A stretch of DNA of 64,000 nt, from the sequence record NC_041937.1; one strand, given 5' to 3'. Below the pieces are notes generated by a model. It ran no database searches. It worked only from the letters and a program-made list of their open reading frames with translations, and was not told where the DNA came from. The position numbers and the translations under genes were made by a program. Shown piece after piece: positions 1 to 59,670 of the stretch (its first letter is position 1; the number at the start of each line of letters is the position of its first letter). The stretch is from Escherichia phage V18.

Positions 1-31
1 AAAAGCCCCCGCCGAAGCGAGGGCAAAACAG

Positions 32-1064
32 TTACTTCAGTTTCTCTTGCAACCCAGTAACAACCTCTGTCAATTTTTTAACCTGCTCCTCAAGGGCGGT
101 TATTTTATCATCCTGCTCCCTGCAAACCTGGACAAGCAAGCCTGTTACAGCTGCGTAATCCACGCTGTAGAATCTTTCCTCTGTTATCAAAGGAGTTCCA
201 TCTTGATCAGGGTTTGGGATTTCCTTTCTTTGCACGAAAGAGCTAACTGCTTCCGGCAGCGCTTCAAGCACCTCTTGTGCTATAACACCTGCATAAGGCA
301 TACCATTCTCTTTCAAGGTGTAGGTATAACCCTTCATCTTACGGATAGCTTCTAACGCATCAGGAATAACAACTATGTTATCTTTCAGGTCTCTGTCAGA
401 ACTCTGATTGACAGATGTGCAATTCACAGCACCGTTTACAGAAAGATATCTTGATTTATCCGGCAAGGTACCGCAATGCCATACATAAGCTGATTGAGAC
501 TCGTCAAGAACCTTAAACTCTAGCACGTTTGGACGAGTCCCTGCACTGCCGTTGCCCCAATAATGCTGCCATCTGGAAAGCGTAGTTTCCAGAAAATGCC
601 ACAGACAACCCGCCAACAACCATTGAACCTTCAGGTCCGTTGACGTTGCCAGCCAGTATTTTGGATGGGTTGTTAGGCCCAAACTGGTTGTTCCAGTCTG
701 CACCAGTATGACATACAAAACCACCCGGTGCTGAGAAAGTGCCATCTTTGTTGAAGTTGTAGAATCTATGAGCTGTGCCTACAACATCGCGAACGATAAC
801 TTGACCAGCTTCCGGAGTAGATCTGAACTCTGCCTGGCCTTGCAGTCTTGCACCATTACCACATTTAGAGGTAAAGGTGTTGTTGATCAGATCCTCTGTT
901 CCTTCTGATGCAGCTTGGAACCCTGCGTTAGAGAACAGTGCTTTTCTAGTGGTCTGACTACCAGGACAAATGTAGTCAATACCGTCTGCCCAAAGCTCGA
1001 CTTTAGGCATGTTCATTTTGCTCATCACTGCATAGCGTTCAGGAGTCCCCAGGTAGTGCCACAT
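32..1064 (-). CDS. distal tail fibre protein with C-terminal intramolecular chaperone-like domain; reading frame changes near 540-560 (ORFs 513-1064 and 32-745)
   Basis: C-terminal SDRDLKDNIVVIPDALEAIRKMKGY followed by coiled coil resembles the self-cleaving chaperone domain of tail fibres/endosialidases; two overlapping ORFs in different frames. Confidence 0.5.
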
Positions 1065-1163
1065 AGTTCCACCACCAGTGTAGAAACCTGATGTTCCTTT
1101 GAACTCAACCAGAGGTCTGGTGTTTGTTACATCATCACCTTTGATTGCAAGACTTGGAAAGAA

Positions 1164-2963
1164 TCACCTCTGTCTGTCCAGCCACCAGTTCTGTAGTGAC
1201 ACTGTAGTGTAGCACAGTTCATTGGGTCCCCCTACAGTCCTGGCACTGGTACCACCACAAGCTATCGGTAGTGGTTCCCATTTGGCTTTCCGGTTGTTAT
1301 AAACACCCCATTCCAAACTGCCGTTACCGGATTCGTCCATCCCGCCATCCCAGATGACCATCTTGGCGGCTTTCTTAGATCCCCAGAAACCTCTTTCTGC
1401 TCCTGAACTGCGGATCCATTCTCCAAGTCCCCAGTTTGCCAGCTGACCGTTCAGATCACCAACCTGCATATATTTAGGACAATCTAAGACCCCATCCTCA
1501 CGGAAGCCTAAATATCTATGAGTTTCAGATCCTTTTGCGCCTTTGTGCAGGTGGATTGTCAACCAAGCCTTATTGTCGTTTCTTACCTCAGAGTAGATCC
1601 TATACCCATGCTCAAGGACACCGTCAGCGCTGTATTTGTCCCCGTTAACAATACCTGATGCTGACTTAACATCAGCAGAACTTTGAGACAGGTAAAGGTG
1701 CCCAAAGGTAGGGGAGTTTCTAGACCCGAGACCGATGTGTGCTCTAAAGGTATCATCGTTACGAGGTCTGACCATCGGCTGCCATGCAGTCCACTGATTT
1801 GTGTTGGCCTGGTAGGTTCTCAAATACCAAACATCTACGTTAGAGAATGGATAGTATTCCTGACGACAACCTGTACCGCCGTTAGCATTGTTCTGCCAAA
1901 CAATCAAGTGACCAGCACCAGAACCTGCAGGGTAACCATTTGCCTCAGTTGCATAGGCAGTCATCGGCTGGTAGTACACACCATCCTGATTACCAGTTAA
2001 GTTATTGATATTGAAATTTGGCTCAAGGGCTGCACGTTGCTTATAGAAAGCCCCCAAGTTAATGCGTGAACCTGCGGCATCCCTGGCACCTGTGCCGCCT
2101 TGCTCTATAGCAAGAGGTTGCCACGAAGCTGTTTGTTGGTTCCACATACCCCAACGGCCTGTTGCATCAAGCTGCAAGTACCCTGCTGTGTTTAAATCAT
2201 CTCCAGCACGGATAACTGTTCTTGTTGGGTTGTTTGCCTCTAGGCGTTTAAATTCATCACGAAGTGCTATTCTTTTTGTTGTTGCTACACCGTTGGTTAC
2301 TGCAATGGTATACATGGCTCCGGTGGTAGCGCCACGGAAAATACCATCAACAGTTGTAGTATCACGACGAGATACCACACCATTCAGAAATTTTTCACCA
2401 GCTGCTACAGAAGGGTAGTTGGTAGTTCTTCCCTCTTCAATAACTGCAGGGCCAACAAAGTTATCAAGGTGAATAACATCGCCTACAGTGTGCACTGTAC
2501 CAAAATCTACACGCTGTGCAAGGGCTTTAGCATCGTTAGCTGTCTGAACAGTAACATCCATTACATCCTGGACAGACTGCCCTTCGGCTGTCATAATCAT
2601 AGATGCGCCAATGGTAGATTCCAGCTCCTCCCTTAAGGACGGATCTGTATATACCATCCATGCAGCGTCAGTAATCCCACCATCGGAGTACGGTGAAGAT
2701 AGTGCAGGGACAGTGTGTGGAAATTCGCCTTTCCAACGCAGGTAGAGGTCTTCCTCTTCGAAGTAGGCAAAATCCATTGGGCCGTTTAACTTACCACCTT
2801 CCTTAAAGGAGATTACATGAGAAACAGTCCCATCCACATGGACAACATCGCCAATTTTTACACGACGAGTCAGGTCTGGTTGTTGAACAACCAGGTAATC
2901 ATCCTCTGTCACTGCGGTAGTGGCAGGAAGAGATTCAATTCTGACAACTTTAATATCAGCCAT
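1164..2963 (-). CDS. tail fibre protein
   Basis: 599 aa; N-terminus DDYLVVQQPDLTRRVKIGDVV shared with ORF 5598-6266; GGTGA(R) ... NLG fibre motifs (QGGTGARDAAGSRINLGA, ACGGTSAR). Confidence 0.7.
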   Translation of the reverse strand: MADIKVVRIESLPATTAVTEDDYLVVQQPDLTRRVKIGDVVHVDGTVSHVISFKEGGKLNGPMDFAYFEEEDLYLRWKGEFPHTVPALSSPYSDGGITDAAWMVYTDPSLREELESTIGASMIMTAEGQSVQDVMDVTVQTANDAKALAQRVDFGTVHTVGDVIHLDNFVGPAVIEEGRTTNYPSVAAGEKFLNGVVSRRDTTTVDGIFRGATTGAMYTIAVTNGVATTKRIALRDEFKRLEANNPTRTVIRAGDDLNTAGYLQLDATGRWGMWNQQTASWQPLAIEQGGTGARDAAGSRINLGAFYKQRAALEPNFNINNLTGNQDGVYYQPMTAYATEANGYPAGSGAGHLIVWQNNANGGTGCRQEYYPFSNVDVWYLRTYQANTNQWTAWQPMVRPRNDDTFRAHIGLGSRNSPTFGHLYLSQSSADVKSASGIVNGDKYSADGVLEHGYRIYSEVRNDNKAWLTIHLHKGAKGSETHRYLGFREDGVLDCPKYMQVGDLNGQLANWGLGEWIRSSGAERGFWGSKKAAKMVIWDGGMDESGNGSLEWGVYNNRKAKWEPLPIACGGTSARTVGGPNELCYTTVSLQNWWLDRQR

Positions 2964-6275: not shown

Positions 6276-6992
6276 TTAGTTAACATCAATAGCACGACCA
6301 GACTGGTTGGCAATAGCCTCATCGTTGGAGGTAGCAATAACACCAGAGTATTCGCGCTCATCTGGAGCAAGCGTCCAGGTATTGCGGTTAATGGTTTGTT
6401 CTGCCTCAGTCATCAGCAGATCTTTATCCTGAGTCAACAGAGAGCCTACAGGGATCGGGTTTTCCATCTCAGGACCAGCATACTGGTTCCACCATGTGGC
6501 ATCTCCGGTTCTAGGCAATCTGAAGTTGATCAGATAGTACAGTTTATTAGCCCACTTAATCCAACCCTCATCATCACAAAGAGAGGTTGTCCCAGAATCA
6601 GGTTGTGGGTAGGTGAACTGATCAAGACCTACGAAAGCCAGTCTTACAATCTCGTTCTCTTTGGTAACAACCTCAAAGAACGCTTGGTATGTTCTCGATC
6701 TTCGATCCATGGTGGACTGGAAGTTTATGATGTTTAGCACATCCGGCTCTTGTCTTGCCACTTCCATGATCTTGTTATCAAGAACAGTCTTCATGACCTT
6801 CTTACTGAGAAAGTCCATATAAGGGAAGCCAAACAGCTCGTCGAAGTACCAGCTCCCCTTCCACGTATTAAACCTCATCCACAAGCGCTGGCGCAGACTT
6901 ACCTGGTTTGAATCTATCAACTCAAGACCTTTGTCTATCGCCAAATCGCCTGTCTGTGGGTCCATCAATATATCACTATAAAGCGTAGCCAT
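6276..6992 (-). CDS. putative baseplate protein
   Basis: 238 aa ORF in baseplate block between spike-like gene and fibre genes; position only. Confidence 0.4.
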   Translation of the reverse strand: MATLYSDILMDPQTGDLAIDKGLELIDSNQVSLRQRLWMRFNTWKGSWYFDELFGFPYMDFLSKKVMKTVLDNKIMEVARQEPDVLNIINFQSTMDRRSRTYQAFFEVVTKENEIVRLAFVGLDQFTYPQPDSGTTSLCDDEGWIKWANKLYYLINFRLPRTGDATWWNQYAGPEMENPIPVGSLLTQDKDLLMTEAEQTINRNTWTLAPDEREYSGVIATSNDEAIANQSGRAIDVN

Positions 6993-7004: not shown

Positions 7005-7682
7005 TTAGTGTGGTCCACTTGTCTCGCCATCAGGGCAAGAGTGGGTATGACCTTTATATTCTGCATAGAATGAATCCAAATCCACACCAGCAGCAGTTAT
7101 AATTCTACCAGATGGGTCTATTGTGGCACCATTCATTCTGATATTTCCATCCACAGCAGCTCGCAAATTGGCAGCCCCATTAGTGAAAGAAAACTCCCCA
7201 CTGCTGTCGCACCGTAATGTCCCACCAGGTGTTTGAAGCTCAAAATCGCCAGAAGGTGTCAGTTTAAAATAAACCCTATCATTCCATAACTCTACGTTAT
7301 CAGGATCGATCTGTAAAGAGTTTGAGTCTGAATGAACAGAGGTGATTGCCCACCCTGGAAACAGGCCGTGAGTTTGTTGATCGTCGTTATTGTTTTCATT
7401 TCTCTCTGAAAACTGCAATCCTACAACATCTCCGGCCTTAATAGGAAGTGTTAACCTTGCCTTTCCGCTGTTTGCAGACATCACCTGAATTGGAACGTCA
7501 TAGATAAGAGGGTATCTCTCCACATCTCCGTCATCAAACGTGGTTTCAGCTATTGGCTGCACGGCTGCAGAAGGAATACTGTAGTCAACACTGACAACTC
7601 TGGCCCTGATGCTGGTGTGGTAGTCCCTCATTATTTTTTCTATAAAGGATCTTACAGCAGCGTCTTTCCTATTTATTGCCAT
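7005..7682 (-). CDS. putative baseplate central spike (gpV-like)
   Basis: 225 aa; beta-rich repeat region and His-rich C-terminal tip (YKGHTHSCPDGETSGPH) typical of spike tips; GAGGAGG RBS upstream. Confidence 0.5.
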   Translation of the reverse strand: MAINRKDAAVRSFIEKIMRDYHTSIRARVVSVDYSIPSAAVQPIAETTFDDGDVERYPLIYDVPIQVMSANSGKARLTLPIKAGDVVGLQFSERNENNNDDQQTHGLFPGWAITSVHSDSNSLQIDPDNVELWNDRVYFKLTPSGDFELQTPGGTLRCDSSGEFSFTNGAANLRAAVDGNIRMNGATIDPSGRIITAAGVDLDSFYAEYKGHTHSCPDGETSGPH

Positions 7683-7685
7683 TAT

Positions 7686-8679
7686 ACCTCCTCAGTTTTG
7701 TCAACAACTCCACCCACTGTTTCCCCAAGGCCAAGCTCTGTAGTGTAATCACCGCCTTCTATGGTGCCCTTATGATGCACCGTGATCACCTTATAGAAGC
7801 CTGTATATTGCTTGCTTTTAAGATAAATAGTGGACTCTGGGAGGATAGCTCCGTTAAGGCATGTGGTTACAGTAAGACCGACATCCTCTCTCGGGTTTTT
7901 CTTTTTCTTACGTGTGCCACCTTTCGCAGCAGCTTTAGCTTTTCGTTTTTTAGCAGGCTCGGGGTTTTTAGGGTGGGAGATCCGTGCATCCCAGACTCTG
8001 CACTTATTTCAAACACAGAGTCCTTGAACCTTTTTCCAACCTTGGTCCAATACAAAGCCCCATCCTGAACGCTAAATGTGGAGTTGGTCAGTCTTGCAAA
8101 CCTGCGGAGGTTCTCTGCAGTGTTTCCAGAGAAAGCCATAGAGTATTGCAAAGTCTGGTTTCCAAAACCAACAACCCTACCTTTTGGCAAGTTCATATCC
8201 TTCAGTAGGTCATTAAGCACAGAGTTCAGAGGTGTGCCTTTCTGATAAGATCTTGTGCTTTGGCACTTAATGATGTTCTCAGTACCATCCCCGAAGATGA
8301 ACTTAGTTTTTCTGGTCGGACCTTCCCATCTGTCTTCAACAAACTCTACAGTTCCGGAGAATATCAACTGGTTCTCATCATCATAGCCAGCTTCAAACAT
8401 AACTGCAAGGGCATCAGCCTGATGCATATCCAGATAGTTAACTGTATCGTCAGACAGGTTGTAAACTGTCACATAACCTTTGTTTGGCTCTTTGGTATTG
8501 TCCTTTTGTATGTCAAACTCTATATTGGCGGCACCAGTGTCTGAGCTAACTTCATAAACTCCGGAATCACTCTCCCCTTTCTTTTCAACAGATTTTGGGA
8601 TATTGGTTTTTGATTTACCGCCATGCTCTACCGGACGACCAAACAATAATCGCCATGTTCTACGTCTGTACTCTGCCAT
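7686..8679 (-). CDS. putative baseplate/tail protein, apparent frame change near 7930-7990
   Basis: 270 aa ORF 7867-8679 ends in an implausible basic tail; another frame stays open to 7686 and encodes a Lys/Ala-rich linker plus C-terminal domain. Confidence 0.4.
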
Positions 8680-9059
8680 TATTCTAACCCTTGCTGTTCC
8701 TTGTAAAGATCAACCGGGGTGCCGTATACAAGTTGTAGCTCAGATCTCGCCCCAAGGTTATATCTTCCAACCCTACCCCAATATTGATCGTCTTTAAACG
8801 ACAGCGCCATCAGTCTACCTTTCGGTAAATCATCTCTGTAATGCAGTCCGTCTAAAATATCTTGACAAGCTGTTACTTTTCTGGTTACTAAAGGGCTGTC
8901 ACCTACTGGACCAAGAGATAACCACCAGGACTCATCCCTCTCATTCCATTGCATACGCATTTCATACGTTTCATTGTCTAAAACAACACGCATGGTTTGA
9001 TCAGGAAAGCCGTCAATGTCCCACACAAAGGTGATTATGCACCAATCTTTAAGCTCCAT
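8679..9059 (-). CDS. hypothetical tail/baseplate protein
   Basis: 126 aa ORF, start overlaps upstream stop (coupled), in tail block. Confidence 0.4.
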   Translation of the reverse strand: MELKDWCIITFVWDIDGFPDQTMRVVLDNETYEMRMQWNERDESWWLSLGPVGDSPLVTRKVTACQDILDGLHYRDDLPKGRLMALSFKDDQYWGRVGRYNLGARSELQLVYGTPVDLYKEQQGLE

Positions 9060-9071
9060 TATACGCTCCCC

Positions 9072-9983
9072 TTATTTCCCGTTAACTTTGTCGTAGTTTC
9101 CCTGTTCAGATGGGACTATGGTAGAAGGTCTTCCATATTCCTGATAATACCAATCCGCAGCCGATTGGGTAACACCGTTTTCATCTGTCCACATCATAGA
9201 TTTATATGGCTGCCACTCCTCTGCAGCATTTGTGGATGCAGTGTCTGCAAATGCCCCTGTGTCCCTCTTGTTACCTACGTTACTACCATTCTTACAGTCG
9301 TTGACAGCACCTTTTTGTTGGGTCTTGCCTACTTTCTTAGGGTTGCTGTATACGGTTGCATTAACAACCTTGTTCAAGTAGAATGTGCGGAACTCTGTAA
9401 GTTCTACATCAAACACCATTGCAGCACCTTCACCAACAGACTTGCTGGCAGAAAGGCTGGTTATGATGTAGTTCTCAAGAAGTCTCTCCTCGGTAACCAA
9501 AGAAACCAACTGTCGCTTATTAATGATCTCAGTCAAAGCCTCCAGTGCGGCACCTGGTCGCATAGATGCTGCAGGGTTTTTAGAGTCAGTATTCCTATCG
9601 ATGTAGTTTTGCTCATAGATTATATGTGGGGATGTATTTACCCTACCAGTAAAAGAAAATACACCATCTTTAATCACAGCGTGGTCTGACAGGGTAGATT
9701 TATCTTCCACCGCAAACCCCGTCTTATCAACAGAGTGTTTGAAAGAGTAATTCTCAACCTGATCGAAGATAATGGCAAGATCGTTAGTGAAGTTTTTACC
9801 CTTCATCTCTATGTTGCGACCGCCATAGTTAAGACCGCTGACAAACATAGTGTACTTTACATCGCTTTCGGTTTGCTGCTCTGCCTTTTCAGCCTTTGGA
9901 GATTTAACCTCTCGAGGCTTGTACAGGTCTTTTTCATCAACTATGTTACTTTGCATAACCTCTCCAGGACACTCCGATACCAT
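9072..9983 (-). CDS. hypothetical tail protein
   Basis: 303 aa ORF directly downstream of tape measure gene. Confidence 0.4.
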   Translation of the reverse strand: MVSECPGEVMQSNIVDEKDLYKPREVKSPKAEKAEQQTESDVKYTMFVSGLNYGGRNIEMKGKNFTNDLAIIFDQVENYSFKHSVDKTGFAVEDKSTLSDHAVIKDGVFSFTGRVNTSPHIIYEQNYIDRNTDSKNPAASMRPGAALEALTEIINKRQLVSLVTEERLLENYIITSLSASKSVGEGAAMVFDVELTEFRTFYLNKVVNATVYSNPKKVGKTQQKGAVNDCKNGSNVGNKRDTGAFADTASTNAAEEWQPYKSMMWTDENGVTQSAADWYYQEYGRPSTIVPSEQGNYDKVNGK

Positions 9984-10059: not shown

Positions 10060-11559
10060 TTACCAAAGGTCGGTAGACATGAAGTTGATATCTTTGCTGT
10101 TCTCCCACTCAAGTTTTGCATCAAGTATTTTGCTAAACTCACCCTCATCTATGGAAAGCGTGATTTTCCCATCACTGATCTCTAAAGGTAGCATTTCCAT
10201 AGTTCTTAATTGAGAAGCAAAACCAGGGCCACCTGGCAACGGAAGAGTCCCGCCCGGCAAAGTGTCCAAAGGATTAACAAACCCGTTACCTCCCGATATG
10301 ATATCTTTGCGAATCATATCGCTGATAGTATCCAGTTGCTGATTTCTTTCACTCAGTGGGTTGAAACGGTCATTAAATAATTCCCCGGCGCTTAATATTG
10401 TACCGATAATGCCCAGCTTGCCGAGCAGACCAACTTTACCACCAGGTGTCTTGAGGCCACCTCCACCTTTTCCTGCCGCGCCACCACTACTAGATCCTTC
10501 TGCAGTAGCGGCACCCGCTGCTCCAGCTGCACCCCTTAGAGAGTTAAGGAATTTAAAGGTTTTTACAAGCATAGATGCCATGACAAAACCTTTTGTTAGG
10601 GCGTTGACTACCAGCATGATGGCAGCAGCAAACCCTGCCCATTTAGCATAGCTAAAGGTGTCATGAAGCTCTTCAGAATATTCCTTCGTCTTAGCTGTTA
10701 TGAATCCCCATTTAATCCCCCATTCAAGGAAAAACATGCGGATCTTGACTATAGTGTTGTTTAGTTCACCAACTACCCAGTTAAGGCCTCTCACAAACCC
10801 ACTAACAAAATCACCAGAGGCATCCCACACAAATTGCAGAGTCTCACCAGTGCGGATTAATGTATAATAGAACTCTGTTAGTTCGTCAGACCAACGGGTG
10901 AACAGTTTCTGACGAGTCAGTTCGATGAAGGTTTTCAGTCTGTTTTCTGCCAGCACGTTAGACTTCTGCATTCTTTCATAACCAGCTGCAGATGCCTCGT
11001 TCATGTACTTAGCCACATACTTCATGATCTTGGCTGTTTTAACCTCACCTTTCTTCATCATGTCCATGAACTGATCCATGGATAGTTCAGAAAGACCAAA
11101 AGCCTCTTTAGTGGCCTTGATAAAAGGTTCGTATGCACCAGGCAAGGCTTCAGCAAGTTGTTGCTTCAGTTCTTCGGACATTACTTGTCCCTTGCCAAGC
11201 ATCTGTTGGATTGCCATAATACCGCGCTGGTATTTTACCTCATCAGCACCATAAGCAGCAGCATACTGGGAGTATGCAGAAAACAGCTCATGCACTTCCT
11301 GATTTGTCATCTGGTTTTTGGCGTTTACCGACATCTGGGCGTAACCTTGAAGACCAGATTTGAGATCAAAACCAAGACGCATAGCCTCTTGCTGGACAAA
11401 CGCAACCTCACTGTTGGCTTTGTTTGGATCTCCAGTAACAGCAGTAAGAGCAGCACTTGCCCCCTCCATCATGTGACCGGATCTGTTAACCGCAGCAAAT
11501 CCAGAAAAAGCTGTATACGCAGCTGTTGCATTAATAACAGATCTACGTAAGTCTCTCAT
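10060..11559 (-). CDS. tape measure protein
   Basis: 499 aa; long helical protein with hydrophobic segment and Gly-rich stretch (GAAGAAGAATAEGSSSGGAAGKGGGG); sits after tube and chaperone genes. Confidence 0.65.
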   Translation of the reverse strand: MRDLRRSVINATAAYTAFSGFAAVNRSGHMMEGASAALTAVTGDPNKANSEVAFVQQEAMRLGFDLKSGLQGYAQMSVNAKNQMTNQEVHELFSAYSQYAAAYGADEVKYQRGIMAIQQMLGKGQVMSEELKQQLAEALPGAYEPFIKATKEAFGLSELSMDQFMDMMKKGEVKTAKIMKYVAKYMNEASAAGYERMQKSNVLAENRLKTFIELTRQKLFTRWSDELTEFYYTLIRTGETLQFVWDASGDFVSGFVRGLNWVVGELNNTIVKIRMFFLEWGIKWGFITAKTKEYSEELHDTFSYAKWAGFAAAIMLVVNALTKGFVMASMLVKTFKFLNSLRGAAGAAGAATAEGSSSGGAAGKGGGGLKTPGGKVGLLGKLGIIGTILSAGELFNDRFNPLSERNQQLDTISDMIRKDIISGGNGFVNPLDTLPGGTLPLPGGPGFASQLRTMEMLPLEISDGKITLSIDEGEFSKILDAKLEWENSKDINFMSTDLW

Positions 11560-12395
11560 GCATCGCCTAGTGTAAGCGTTTGGCTGGTGGCACTTTTAAA
11601 TCCAGACTGCAGTGCTGACAGGTGGGCGTTAAAGGTTGACTTTTTCATCTCCCCGCGAGCAAACCTGGACTCTAACTCTGAGTATCCTGGCAAGCTTCCA
11701 CGGAATCCGGCCCCATACTTGGCAGAAAGTCTTATCGCGGAGTTGTAGAGGTGGGTTCTTCTTGCCTCACGATCCGACATAAGCCTATTATCCATACCAG
11801 CTTTACCGTCCCTTCTTAGCTGTCTATGATAACGATTCATAGCAGCTGTCTGAGCTTTTACAAGATTAGGGTCGGAAGCCACACCACCCATATTAGGGTT
11901 ACCGGGGATATATTTGAAAGCTTTGGCATTAGCCAGAACTCTTGCCTTAGGTGCCTTATAACCGCCGTAAGACACTGGTGCAGATTTGGCAGCCTTTTTG
12001 GCCTCTTTAGCTTGCTGCTGGTAGAACTTACGCATCCTAGCCATTTCTGGATTTTTAGCGGTAAGATTACCTACAGCTTGTTTACGTCTCGCATTCTCCC
12101 TACGTTCTATTGCAGCCCTTACTGCAGCCTCTTTCTTGGCCTGTGCTACGCTCTCCCTGTGCAGCTTAGCATTTGCCTGAGATTGCTGTCTGGCAACCCG
12201 CTGCATTGTCTGCTGGGTTTTAACAGCTACCGCCTGCCATCTACTCATGGGGTTGGCTGAGTTAAAATCCTCACCTAGTTTCCTGAACTCCCTCCCAATA
12301 CTGCGAATTTTCTCTACAGCTTTTTTGTAGGAGGAGTTCTCTATCTCAAAGCCAATCTTGTTGACTGTTGTGGCAACTATTTTGTTTGTAGCCAT
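11556..12395 (-). CDS. tape-measure-associated basic coiled-coil protein (possibly N-terminal part of the tape measure)
   Basis: 279 aa Lys/Arg/Ala-rich helical protein; its stop overlaps the next start (ATGA). Confidence 0.5.
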   Translation of the reverse strand: MATNKIVATTVNKIGFEIENSSYKKAVEKIRSIGREFRKLGEDFNSANPMSRWQAVAVKTQQTMQRVARQQSQANAKLHRESVAQAKKEAAVRAAIERRENARRKQAVGNLTAKNPEMARMRKFYQQQAKEAKKAAKSAPVSYGGYKAPKARVLANAKAFKYIPGNPNMGGVASDPNLVKAQTAAMNRYHRQLRRDGKAGMDNRLMSDREARRTHLYNSAIRLSAKYGAGFRGSLPGYSELESRFARGEMKKSTFNAHLSALQSGFKSATSQTLTLGDA

Positions 12396-18387: not shown

Positions 18388-19212
18388 TTATTCACCACCT
18401 TTCAGAGTTGCTTTAACAACCAGCTCTGGACGGGTGTTAACTGCCAGCATGGAAGTTTCAGATTCAATCTTCTCTTCACGCAGGTATGCAGAGTGTTTAT
18501 ACCACATGTACAGTTCCTGTGCTGGAGTGTTTGCTTCGTTAACATCGTCTGCCGGAGCAAAGTGCAGCTGGAACATCTGATCAATACCCATCGGCAGAAT
18601 GCGAGCTTCTTTCTTAGGAATATTGCCAGAGATATCTTCGATAAAGGTGATACCTTTATGCTCAAACACACGGTATACGCTGTCTTGACCGCCAGCACCC
18701 AGACGGCGACGCAGAGGTTCCTGAGCAGAGCCGTAATAGGTGTATGCCAGTTCTACCAGAGGGTCATACTGACAGGTTGTGTCACCAGGTGCATAGGATT
18801 TACCCAGAATAGCCTGGAACAGCGCTTTCTCACGCAGTGCTTCATGAGAAACACGGATACGGCGAACAACGCGGGTTACTACGTCCTGAACAGTTTTCGG
18901 AGCATCAGGTGTGAAGTAACGACGGAAGTTCTGAACATCTGCTGCGGTGATGCCTTTGTCCAGAGGGAAGAACGGGATGTTCAGGTTTTTAACCTGAGCA
19001 CGTTCACTACCAACGTAGTTACGCTCACCACCACGACGGCGTGCCGGAATGTCGGTTACAACTTCATCAACACGCTCAATCTGAGCAATTGTTGAGGTGC
19101 CGAGACGGGTTTCGAACAGATCCATACCAGTAATCAGGCGGAATTGACGCGGAACAAGGTCCAGAGTAGCACCTAAATCAACAATGCCAAATTCATCTTT
19201 ACGAGTAATCAT
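18388..19212 (-). CDS. putative major capsid protein
   Basis: 274 aa; strongly biased GC-rich codon usage unlike neighbours (high expression); downstream of portal and head ORFs; perfect 10 bp GC hairpin terminator follows. Confidence 0.55.
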   Translation of the reverse strand: MITRKDEFGIVDLGATLDLVPRQFRLITGMDLFETRLGTSTIAQIERVDEVVTDIPARRRGGERNYVGSERAQVKNLNIPFFPLDKGITAADVQNFRRYFTPDAPKTVQDVVTRVVRRIRVSHEALREKALFQAILGKSYAPGDTTCQYDPLVELAYTYYGSAQEPLRRRLGAGGQDSVYRVFEHKGITFIEDISGNIPKKEARILPMGIDQMFQLHFAPADDVNEANTPAQELYMWYKHSAYLREEKIESETSMLAVNTRPELVVKATLKGGE

Positions 19213-19296
19213 TTATTTCTCCAAAGTAAAATTGTAGCCAGCATCGCTAGAATCAACTTTGCCGAGCACGATATCAGAATATTGAGCGGTAATCAT
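19213..19296 (-). CDS. small upstream ORF (27 aa) preceding capsid gene
   Basis: MITAQYSDIVLGKVDSSDAGYNFTLEK; shares GAAATAAATGATTAC initiation region with the capsid gene; may be leader peptide or non-functional. Confidence 0.25.
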   Translation of the reverse strand: MITAQYSDIVLGKVDSSDAGYNFTLEK

Positions 19297-19380
19297 TTAT
19301 TTCCCCCGTTAAACTCTTATGCTTCAGCAGATCCAGATACTCTTTAGTTTTGGTTGCGTCCCTTGATCAGGTTCCCTTCT

Positions 19381-19728
19381 TTATCGAAGAGATCCCAGCC
19401 TACCAATACAAGACTCTGCGTCAGCTTGCGCCCATTCCCAATCAGGATGCTCTTTAGCCCAAGCCTCCTCTTCAATCTCAAAACCAAGCATGTGTGCAAG
19501 TGCTTTAGCATCATCATACCACATATCGAAGAAACGACGCAAGTATTCTTCAAAACTAAGCTCCACAGTAACTTGGCGAAGTGCCTTAACAATATCGTCT
19601 GTTAACTGCTCAGGCTTAAGATCACTCTTCATCAAAAGAGATACAGGTCTGTTGTTAGCGCTATAGCCTTGCGCCTTATGGCACAGGGCAATCCCCTTCT
19701 CTTTAATAGTAATCGTTTTTTCAGACAT
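19381..19728 (-). CDS. hypothetical head protein
   Basis: 115 aa acidic ORF between portal and capsid genes. Confidence 0.4.
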   Translation of the reverse strand: MSEKTITIKEKGIALCHKAQGYSANNRPVSLLMKSDLKPEQLTDDIVKALRQVTVELSFEEYLRRFFDMWYDDAKALAHMLGFEIEEEAWAKEHPDWEWAQADAESCIGRLGSLR

Positions 19729-21873: not shown

Positions 21874-23429
21874 TTAGATAAAACGCTTGAACATAGAAGG
21901 TGATGAGATTGATGGAATCACACAAGGAAGTGCTACCTCCTCTTTCTCCAGGAAATTAATCGCAGAAGCTACACAGTCGGCCCAGTCGTCTTTTCTGTTA
22001 AATGTTGATCTTTCCCCGTTGAATTTTTCAAGTTCAGTCAGAAATGCTTCCAGAGTATCAGGATGGAAACTGGATTTTACAATCCTCACCATTCCTTGTT
22101 GGGCAAGATTGGCAAAAGGTGAGAACCTTGTCAGTTTAGATTTGTTGGAAGGCATTGGGTCTTCTTCAACCCTAAACCCTTCGGCAAGCAAGGATCTGGA
22201 GGAGGTTAAGAACTCACTCTTACCTGCCTGACCGGGGTCCACAGAGAATACGATTATACAATCATCACCATCAAACTGCGCCTGTTTCCTGATGATCACA
22301 TCTCGTTCACCAGCCTTTTTACAGAACTTGCCTTCCAGACCTGTGGAATACCTCCCGTCATCCACGTTCTCAGGACAATAATCCCCGGACAGGTAATAAA
22401 AGCCGTCGCTATCTTTACTTACCTTGACACTGGCGGTAAAGTCAGGAAATTTATTACCGGAAGTTCTCTCGGTTCCTGCTTTATCCCATGCCCTGCAAGA
22501 CACTGATCCAAGGGGTACTCTATCGGCATCACGAAGGAAAGATCTTTGAAAATAGTTTGCACCCTCAGGCTTTGCAAACCAGTTACCATGGAGAAGCTGA
22601 GCTTTTTCAAGCTCGGGCAGACCTTCAAGGAAAGCAAGGTATTCTGGGTTGTCTCTTAAGCAGACAGGATTATCGAAGATTGTTGCGCCTATAAACGAGA
22701 ATGACAACGGTCTCGGCTTGATCTCTACACCCAGTCCGTTAACCGTGGTGTATTTCTCTATCAACTCTTCTTTAGAGTCTCCCCAGATAAATTCACCGTC
22801 GCGTCGGATAAAATATCTTTTCTTACCGCATTTCTCCGGATCTGGATACCCTTCATCGTCCAACCACCACCTAACCAGTTTGGCAAGCATGTGTTCTGAA
22901 TCGGGGTTACAGCTGATAACCATTCTTGATGGATACTTTGACTGAGATCTCAGACGAGACATCAGATAGTCTATCTGCTCCCATTCGAACTGCGTGCCTC
23001 ATCGAAGCAAACCAAGCAAACCATGGTATACTCAAGCCCTTGATGGTTAAGCTTATCTTGTACATACTCCATGTGGCAGTATTTTACAACAGCTCCCTTT
23101 TTGCTTCTATCCCACTTGCCAGTGTTCGGATCAAACCGTGGAAAAATGAACTTATGATCCTTCTCTCTGAACTTTGGCTTAATGTTTTCAGGCAGATCAC
23201 TATAAATAGCTACTGCTTTAGGCCATAGTCCACCCTCACCTTCCAACTGTGGGGTTGTTCTTCGGAACATAACCACAGAGCTGTGGGGGTCATCAATAAT
23301 TTTAAGTGGCATCAATTGCAAGAGGAACGACTTGCCAGACCCTGCGGCACCGCCGATTACCAAAATATCTGCATCGTTTTCGAGGATCATCTTCTGCTTT
23401 TCAGAACACGGTCCGTAAATCTTAGACAT
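21874..23429 (-). CDS. terminase large subunit, split into two frames (ATPase ORF 22971-23429, nuclease ORF 21874-22962)
   Basis: Walker A GGAAGSGKS and Walker B CLVCFDEA in N-terminal ORF; other frame continues ...EWEQIDYLMSRLRSQSKYPSRMVISCNPD after a single frame change. Confidence 0.75.
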
Positions 23430-32276: not shown

Positions 32277-33598
32277 TGCATCAGATCAAAACAACACTGT
32301 ACGCACTGAACAAAGATGGCAGCTACCAACAGTGGAAAGTATTCACGGATGGTGATAAGGTTATCGTAGAGTTTGGCAAGCTTGATGGTAAATTGCAATA
32401 CAAAGAGACGATCTGCACACCTAAGAACGTTGGTCGCGCCAATGAAACTACAGCTGAGCAACAGGCCGAGCTGGAAGCGATCAGTAAGTGGGAAAAACAG
32501 GTCCGACTCGGGTACGTGGAGAGTATGGAAGATTGTGAGCAAGGTGTTGATCTTTTACCAATGTTAGTGCATGACTACCTGAAGCGTGGCAAGGCACTTA
32601 AATTACCTTGCTGGATCTTGCGTAAGTTAGATGGCCTTCGTCTACTTGTTGTTTTCCAGAATGGTGAGCCTAAATTTATTTCCCGTGGTAATAAATCCTA
32701 CCCTATTCAAGGAAAGCTTTTGGAGCAACTTCGCTCTTTCCACCTAACCACCGGGATTAAACAGCTCGACGGAGAGCTCTATATTCATGGTCTGCCTCTG
32801 CAGAAAATAGTGTCTCTTGCTAAACGGTGGCGCACACAGGAAGAAATTCAGGCCGAGATCGATAAAGACTACGAGGCAGATAAAAAACGCCGTCAGGCTG
32901 CGATTAAGGCAGGTTTAGCAACATACAAAAACTTCAACAAGATGGATATTCCTGTTGATGTTGATCCTGTTCGTGATGATTTGCGTTACGGAGGGTACTG
33001 CAGCTACGACCTAGAGTATCATATTTTCGATATCCCTAGCGATAAGGTGTGGTGGGATCCTGAAACAGAGTCTGGTCGCTGTAAGGATCTTATGGAGGCA
33101 AACGGTGCTATTACTTCTTTGATGCTTGATCATATTAAGGTTGTTGATGCAGAGCTTGCATATACGGTTGATCGGTGCGAAGAGTCTGTTGGTATATTTA
33201 TGTCTGAAGGATATGAAGGTACCATTATGCGTAACTTCTGTGGTAAATATGAGTATGGTCAGCGAACATCTGAAGCATTGAAATGGAAAAAGTTCAACGA
33301 CGCAGAGGTGAAAGTTATTGACGTTGAGAAAGATAAGAATGATGAAGGTGTTCTTATCTGTGTTGACAAGGAAGGTGTTGTTGTTAAAATGAAGATGAAA
33401 GGCACGCACGAGGAGCGTAGCTATGACAGGATGCAGGAAATGATCGGCAAGTTTGTCACCTTCAAATATCAAGCAAGGACAGAAGACAACAACTACCAAT
33501 TCCCGGAGTGGTGGGATGCTGTATGCGTCAGAAAATCCGCAGAATATGCAAAACATGATGATTCGTTGGAAGAGTGGTTTAATCGGAGGTTTAAATGA
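32276..33598 (+). CDS. ATP-dependent DNA ligase
   Basis: 440 aa; motif I KLDGLR, motif IV EGYEGTIMR, motif V KWKKF. Confidence 0.75.
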   Translation: MHQIKTTLYALNKDGSYQQWKVFTDGDKVIVEFGKLDGKLQYKETICTPKNVGRANETTAEQQAELEAISKWEKQVRLGYVESMEDCEQGVDLLPMLVHDYLKRGKALKLPCWILRKLDGLRLLVVFQNGEPKFISRGNKSYPIQGKLLEQLRSFHLTTGIKQLDGELYIHGLPLQKIVSLAKRWRTQEEIQAEIDKDYEADKKRRQAAIKAGLATYKNFNKMDIPVDVDPVRDDLRYGGYCSYDLEYHIFDIPSDKVWWDPETESGRCKDLMEANGAITSLMLDHIKVVDAELAYTVDRCEESVGIFMSEGYEGTIMRNFCGKYEYGQRTSEALKWKKFNDAEVKVIDVEKDKNDEGVLICVDKEGVVVKMKMKGTHEERSYDRMQEMIGKFVTFKYQARTEDNNYQFPEWWDAVCVRKSAEYAKHDDSLEEWFNRRFK

Positions 33599-34074
33599 AG
33601 CTAGATAAAAATGTACAATTGAGAGCATTTTTTTCGATGATTTCACACTCAGAAGGTACTGACAGGTATGGTGGCGAAGATGCTTCGTACCACATCCTTG
33701 TTGGTGGAAAATACATAGAGGATCTCAGCAGGCATCCCGGTATTTATGTCAAATTAAGACCGGGCCTTACCTCTTCAGCATTTGGCAGATACCAAATTCT
33801 GGAGAAATACGCTAAGCATTACATGAAGCAGCTTGGCTTAAGAGATTTTGGTCCGGCAAGTCAAGATGCCATAGCAAAACAGTTGATCCGCGAATGTAAA
33901 GCCCTTGATGACATTTATGAAGGAAGGATCCGTTCAGCTATCTATAAATGCCGTAGCCGTTGGGCAAGTTTCCCACCACCACCGGGGGCTGGTAAACTGT
34001 ATGATCAGCGTGTAGAAAACATAGAGAAGATGCTGGACGTCTTCCGAAAAGCCGGAGGCACAGTACTGGATTAA
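33595..34074 (+). CDS. endolysin (lambda R-like lytic transglycosylase)
   Basis: Aligns by eye with lambda R: SHSEGTD, ILVGG, SSAFGRYQIL, KQLGLRDFGPASQDAIA, WASFPPPPGAG, KAGGTV. Confidence 0.75.
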   Translation: MKLDKNVQLRAFFSMISHSEGTDRYGGEDASYHILVGGKYIEDLSRHPGIYVKLRPGLTSSAFGRYQILEKYAKHYMKQLGLRDFGPASQDAIAKQLIRECKALDDIYEGRIRSAIYKCRSRWASFPPPPGAGKLYDQRVENIEKMLDVFRKAGGTVLD

Positions 34075-59490: not shown

Positions 59491-59670
59491 ATGATTGTTT
59501 ATTTTAAAACTTCAGGTGGATACCCTGATTCTCAAAGCTTGATCGGAAAAACGTGCACAGCATACTCACCTCTTGATGAGGAGGTAAGCGATATTCTACG
59601 AAATATGTATCGGATTGACCCCCAAGAAGCTTTGATCAAAACCTTGTATTTGTCAAGGGCTCAGATATGA
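59491..59670 (+). CDS. hypothetical small protein (59 aa)
   Basis: MIVYFKTSGGYPDSQ... ORF not in track. Confidence 0.3.
   Translation: MIVYFKTSGGYPDSQSLIGKTCTAYSPLDEEVSDILRNMYRIDPQEALIKTLYLSRAQI

Follow-up and report, generated by a model that had tools for sequence, protein, structure and literature searches.

A baseplate hub gene of an rV5-like phage apparently split between two reading frames by a missing cytosine

In the 64,000-nt stretch of phage DNA analysed here (the window), a gene of the baseplate region seems to have two C-termini in different frames. The question is which of them belongs to the protein, and whether the other arose from ribosomal slippage or from an error in the sequence. 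The minus-strand ORF 8679-7867 encodes 270 amino acids and ends in ...GSPTLKTPSLLKNEKLKLLRKVAHVRKRKTRERMSVLL*. A -1 frame of the same strand opens at 8008, just after a TGA at 8011-8009, and continues to 7685; its stop (TAA, 7684-7682) shares the sequence TAATG with the ATG of the next gene (7682). The product of this frame reads ...PKNPEPAKKRKAKAAAKGGTRKKKKNPREDVGLTVTTCLNGAILPESTIYLKSKQYTGFYKVITVHHKGTIEGGDYTTELGLGETVGGVVDKTEEV, and its segments ...PKNPEPAKKRKAKAAAKGGTRKKKKNPREDVGLTV...GDYTTELGLGETVGGVVDKTEEV form a Lys/Ala-rich linker followed by a folded C-terminal domain. A preliminary description had remarked on the implausible basic tail of the first ORF and on a second frame that stays open from about 7990 to 7686, and both features are present as it described them.

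From the start of the gene to its true stop there are 998 nt, a number not divisible by three. We used the intact hub of phage bov10K2 as a tblastn query. Its residues 1-240 match positions 8679-7960 in one frame (99.2% identity) and its residues 237-334 match positions 7972-7685 in the other (95.9% identity), a two-frame match far beyond chance. The second segment covers the Lys/Ala-rich linker and the well-formed C-terminal domain that had been placed in the alternative frame. Once one C is added, the translation is a 332-aa protein, equal in length to the hub of Phage 203 and different from it at two residues. The bov10K2 match and the repaired translation both uphold the earlier view that the alternative-frame C-terminus is the real one. 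The spurious tail that follows the deletion is 34 codons long, and the shifted-frame peptide across the site contains ...GSPTLKTPSLLKN....

The repaired protein matches PHROG 196 (baseplate hub) in one stretch over residues 1-330 (E 5.9e-84). It also matches the solved hub chain of Pectobacterium phage phiTE (PDB 9cuy chain X, 9cuy_X; E 4.1e-108) and gp137 of phi92 (PDB 21vq chain M; E 5.8e-51). The latter two are hubs of other phage genera, with lower identity and a different linker length, but the likeness extends over the whole length, and in each alignment a single chain covers the basic linker and continues through the C-terminal domain. A Pfam scan of the repaired hub identified no family. 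The order of the tail module (tape measure, tube initiator, plug, hub and central spike) is present in the window and is the same in the annotation of the relatives. What had been described as a baseplate-region gene can thus be named, from its PHROG 196 match and its tail-module neighbours, as the baseplate hub.

In cryo-EM structures, homologous hubs form a trimer that makes a pseudo-hexameric ring under the tube initiator (PMC13450770, PMC11972413). Their domains are described as tube-like or beta-sandwich, followed by a C-terminal (head-distal) one (PMC13450770, PMC11972413); in phi92 a tube-like and a C-terminal domain make up a pseudo-six-fold ring (PMC13450770). The C-terminal domain of the hub binds the spike with 1:1 stoichiometry (PMC11972413). 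The N-terminal tube-like and C-terminal spike-binding domains are carried on one polypeptide in the relatives and in the solved structures, whereas the window as written splits them between frames, and a single polypeptide with both domains is encoded here solely once one C is restored. Because the repaired protein matches the hub family end to end and the hub neighbours fit, the well-formed domain of the -1 frame is just the usual C-terminal domain of the hub.

Table 1. Features of the hub locus, its tail-module neighbours, and other genes or sites in the window affected by single-base indels.
Feature	Position	Strand	Evidence or remark
Wedge-like protein	6279-6992	-	Domain/profile searches
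Central spike (next gene), phi92-type N-terminal domain	7005-7682	-	Domain/profile searches (PF18352 N-terminal domain, E 1.4e-9); start overlaps hub stop (TAATG) as in relatives
Baseplate hub gene, rV5-like myophage	7682-8679	-	998 nt versus 999 or 1005 nt in relatives; PHROG 196; phiTE hub
True 3' part of hub gene, -1 frame (linker and C-terminal domain)	7685-7972	-	tblastn; repaired translation; phiTE/phi92 alignments
Out-of-frame tail LKTPSLLKNEKLKLLRKVAHVRKRKTRERMSVLL with stop TAA (7869-7867)	7867-7971	-	After the deletion; no counterpart in relatives' proteins
A-rich run aagaaaaagaaaaac, ordinary linker coding (KKKKN), without indel	7895-7909	-	Alignments to relatives
A_AAA_AAC heptamer, in slippery register solely in the broken frame	7945-7951	-	Register computed; relatives' alignment; sole conceivable rescue site, unsupported
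CCC run (CCCC in relatives), one-base deletion that switches the frame	7971-7973	-	Alignments to relatives
Pam3 gp18-type plug	8682-9059	-	Domain/profile searches
Dit-like tube initiator	9075-9983	-	Domain/profile searches
Tape measure, GG to G, break ~11560	10060-12395	-	Residues 1-279 and 279-778 in different frames; one 778-aa ORF in relatives
Tail gene, split	~15502		Protein-level mapping
Head-module gene, split	~17907		Protein-level mapping
Large terminase, CCC to CC, ~22997	21877-23429	-	Split gene
RNA-ligase-like gene, split	~29598		Protein-level mapping
Further split genes	34608, 35166, 39684-39690		Protein-level mapping
NrdD, split	~48772		Protein-level mapping
PhoH, split	~51252		Protein-level mapping
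Small genes, split	near 59631, 59895		Protein-level mapping
More isolated single-base indels	24224, 26061, 27158, 61960, 63557		Versus close relatives

The window comes from an rV5-like E. coli myophage (Vequintavirus) and shares ~97% identity with many phages in GenBank. With a 2.1-kb query centred on the hub region we obtained 119 phage records at 90-99% identity, nearly all of them Escherichia phages of the genus Vequintavirus, and a 25-kb query matched BP9, bov10K2, Murica and others at ~97% identity, none being identical. This rV5-like region is also >90% identical to 18 unannotated GenBank records (MG0656xx) labelled 'Campylobacter phage' with Campylobacter jejuni as host; the naming or host assignment of these records looks doubtful.

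In DrSchubert, Phage 203, FFH2, BP9 and bov10K2 the hub is a single CDS of 999 or 1005 nt (332-334 aa), annotated as 'baseplate hub' where it is named. The rV5-like hubs (rV5/FFH2, YP_009030955.1; DrSchubert, bas50_0022; Phage 203, ATW61394.1) share gene order and the TAATG overlap with the window, and the 1-nt overlap of hub and spike is present in the DrSchubert, Phage 203 and FFH2 annotations. The difference is the C missing at 7973-7971. Alignment to DrSchubert, Phage 203 and FFH2 contains a lone one-base gap, where the relatives have ACCCCT and the window has ACCCT. The relatives thus read CCT ACC CCT AAA AAC CC- (P T P K N P), and the window reads CCC A-CC CTA AAA ACC CC. A 66-nt query centred on the C run matched 117 records, none of them identical to it. 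We inspected these matches in two overlapping 60-row lists (the best matches, and an even spread through the ranking), and in every inspected row except that of Escherichia phage vB_Eco_Alma (OV101294.1) the record was one base longer than the aligned part of the query, the extra base being kept. Searches of IMG/VR, GTDB genomes and JGI metagenomes for the deleted (CCC) version yielded no match.

The preliminary description had put the frame switch near the A-rich run aagaaaaagaaaaac. This placement does not hold: the switch lies 62-78 nt upstream of the run, in the C run, and the A-rich run is the same in the window, Phage 203, DrSchubert, FFH2 and Alma. It also sits inside the linker that the description itself had assigned to the alternative frame. 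The linker carries a 6-nt in-frame length polymorphism (GGTR versus GGSTSK), common to the window and Phage 203, that represents natural variation.

The hub of Alma is likewise split, by a different lesion. This phage keeps CCCC and has a 1-nt deletion of its own (AAAAAA to AAAAA) in an A6 run that lies 20 nt further downstream than the C run of the window. Its hub locus (260-1235) is annotated as a truncated 261-aa CDS, with an unannotated stretch between that CDS and the spike gene. From the positions of the two deletions, that of Alma is an independent homopolymer event in the same linker, and thus a different allele. The Alma record has 267 annotated features compared with 217-234 in the relatives, and this higher count may reflect more split genes there.

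The hub is not the only gene in the window that is broken by a single base. A nucleotide-level comparison of the window with two or three relatives of ~97% identity revealed ~20 further isolated indels of one base. Most are deletions that shorten a G/C run of 2-4 (GG to G, CCC to CC, GGG to GG and GGGG to GGG). Two references overlap over the first 37 kb, and most of the indels there appear against both. Protein-level mapping indicates that the genes split by indels (Table 1), which also include a homing-endonuclease-like gene, are otherwise 96-100% identical to those of the relatives; apart from the indels, no sign of decay or relaxed selection was identified in the broken genes. In the capsid module (18388-19728, minus strand), the major capsid ORF encodes 274 aa, against 335 aa in the relatives, with ~186 nt missing near 18764; the 129-aa gene next to it is lacking, and of a head gene encoding 325 aa just 115 aa are left. 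These gaps look like assembly drop-outs. A viable lytic phage could not carry all of the lesions in the window, and their pattern is that of homopolymer under-calling combined with patchy assembly.

Several other differences from the relatives were recorded. The large terminase gene contains a 9-nt tandem duplication (AAGCAAACC) at 23005, adjoining its CCC to CC deletion, and relative to bov10K2 an intergenic spacer at ~40580 (plus strand) carries 8 nt duplicated in tandem (AATGACAC twice). The endolysin position (33595-34074, plus strand) is occupied by a 159-aa ORF for which no match to the 156-aa lysozyme of bov10K2 exceeds 80% identity, and the DNA there is also unaligned to BP9; the allele seems to have been replaced, and an error is not indicated. 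The tail fibre gene (1-2963, minus strand) is mosaic, with positions 568-1124 being 84% identical to bov10K2 and 96% identical to BP9, and it lacks some parts of the reference fibre or has them in another arrangement.

We conclude, with a probability of about 0.9, that this is an ordinary Vequintavirus hub gene, apparently split by a C lost through sequencing or assembly error, rather than by a programmed frameshift or a real property of the phage. The hub is a single ~332-aa polypeptide composed of tube-like N-terminal domains, a Lys/Ala-rich linker and a spike-docking C-terminal domain. Because one C of CCCC is lost (leaving CCC at 7973-7971), the annotated frame reads into the 34-codon junk tail, and the genuine linker and C-terminal domain continue in the -1 frame. 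Most likely the base was lost through an error of base calling or assembly, as in many other homopolymer deletions of this sequence. We favour an error since all inspected relatives keep the base at the C run and the window contains many similar single-base indels; a technical cause is most likely, rather than a real mutation. Slippage and an indel error had both been suggested for this locus. The second is supported by the one missing C and the many similar indels; the first is unsupported because the relatives encode the hub in a single frame, with no conserved frameshift. On the other side, deletions in runs as short as 2-3 bases do not fit the classic error profile of all sequencing platforms, and the 1-nt deletion of Alma in the same linker could be read as a recurrent biological event.

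It is unlikely that the deletion is real and that the window derives from a defective or decaying genome, or from a minority variant, with a truncated and non-functional hub. The CCC deletion is present in the sequence as given, and the capsid-module gaps fit a defective genome as well as they fit poor assembly. Against this, the lesions are nearly all single-base homopolymer deletions, which is a technical signature. Given ~97% nucleotide identity to viable phages, and 96-100% protein identity for the broken genes outside their indels, there is no sign of relaxed selection besides the indels. The rV5-like phages are virulent, and thus a route of prophage decay is not expected.

It is very improbable that the deletion is real and a full-length hub is nevertheless made by -1 frameshifting, either at the A_AAA_AAC heptamer (7951-7945) or in the A-rich run (7909-7895). 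The case for the heptamer is that, after the deletion, the reading CTA AAA AAC presents a canonical X_XXY_YYZ slippery sequence in the zero frame, within the overlap of both frames. By computation, a -1 slip there would give a full-length product in which merely ~10 linker residues are changed; the hypothetical product carries ...GSPTLKTPSLLKNR.... Thus, were CCC genuine, a fortuitous slip at A_AAA_AAC 20 nt downstream could produce a working hub in which ~10 residues of a flexible linker are altered, a scenario to which we give the same very low weight. Alma likewise requires a -1 shift in the same linker. However, five annotated relatives need no frameshift, the hub being one ORF, and Alma alone is annotated as truncated. 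The relatives read the bases of the heptamer in another register (GCT AAA AAA CGA), and since the register arises here solely because of the deletion, the heptamer could not have been selected as a slippery site. We identified no significant stimulatory structure downstream of the heptamer: the fold of 7944-7860 has an energy of -18.5 kcal/mol (z -1.64), equalled by 16 of 200 shuffles, and the predicted stem begins ~25 nt past the heptamer, which is an unsuitable distance. Comparable rescues would also be required in a dozen other essential genes of the window. Rescue at the heptamer is thus retained as a minor possibility; if true, an essential structural gene would here be rescued through spontaneous frameshift suppression.

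A known programmed frameshift of a tail module is the G/GT type of lambda, in which the chaperone for tail assembly is encoded between the tube and tape measure genes, is conserved, and has both of its frames maintained. The locus described here resembles it in being a tail-module gene with a C-terminal extension in a second frame and a slippery-looking A-rich sequence nearby. It differs in that the gene is the hub, which the relatives encode in one frame, and in that the layout results from a single-base deletion seen in no other inspected record. A conserved programmed -1 frameshift is ruled out by the absence of the two-frame layout from the inspected relatives, and the deletion of Alma is a different one. 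Among the papers listed by a literature search on Vequintavirus and frameshift, neither term was found in titles or abstracts. Slippage in the A-rich run (7909-7895) is also ruled out, as every aligned relative has the run unchanged and the frame has already switched upstream of it, and a slip there would forfeit most of the conserved linker.

The missing C is thus our preferred account of the locus. The hub gene is already known, its two-frame appearance is not a biological feature, and the split gene carries no new biology. For annotation, the appropriate call is a single 332-aa hub protein, or a gene marked as frameshifted, and not a 270-aa protein with a basic tail plus an orphan ORF. The sequence is best regarded as error-prone throughout the window, and other findings of alternative frames, truncated genes and overlapping ORFs here (in the tape measure, terminase, capsid, NrdD and PhoH genes) likely have the same trivial cause.
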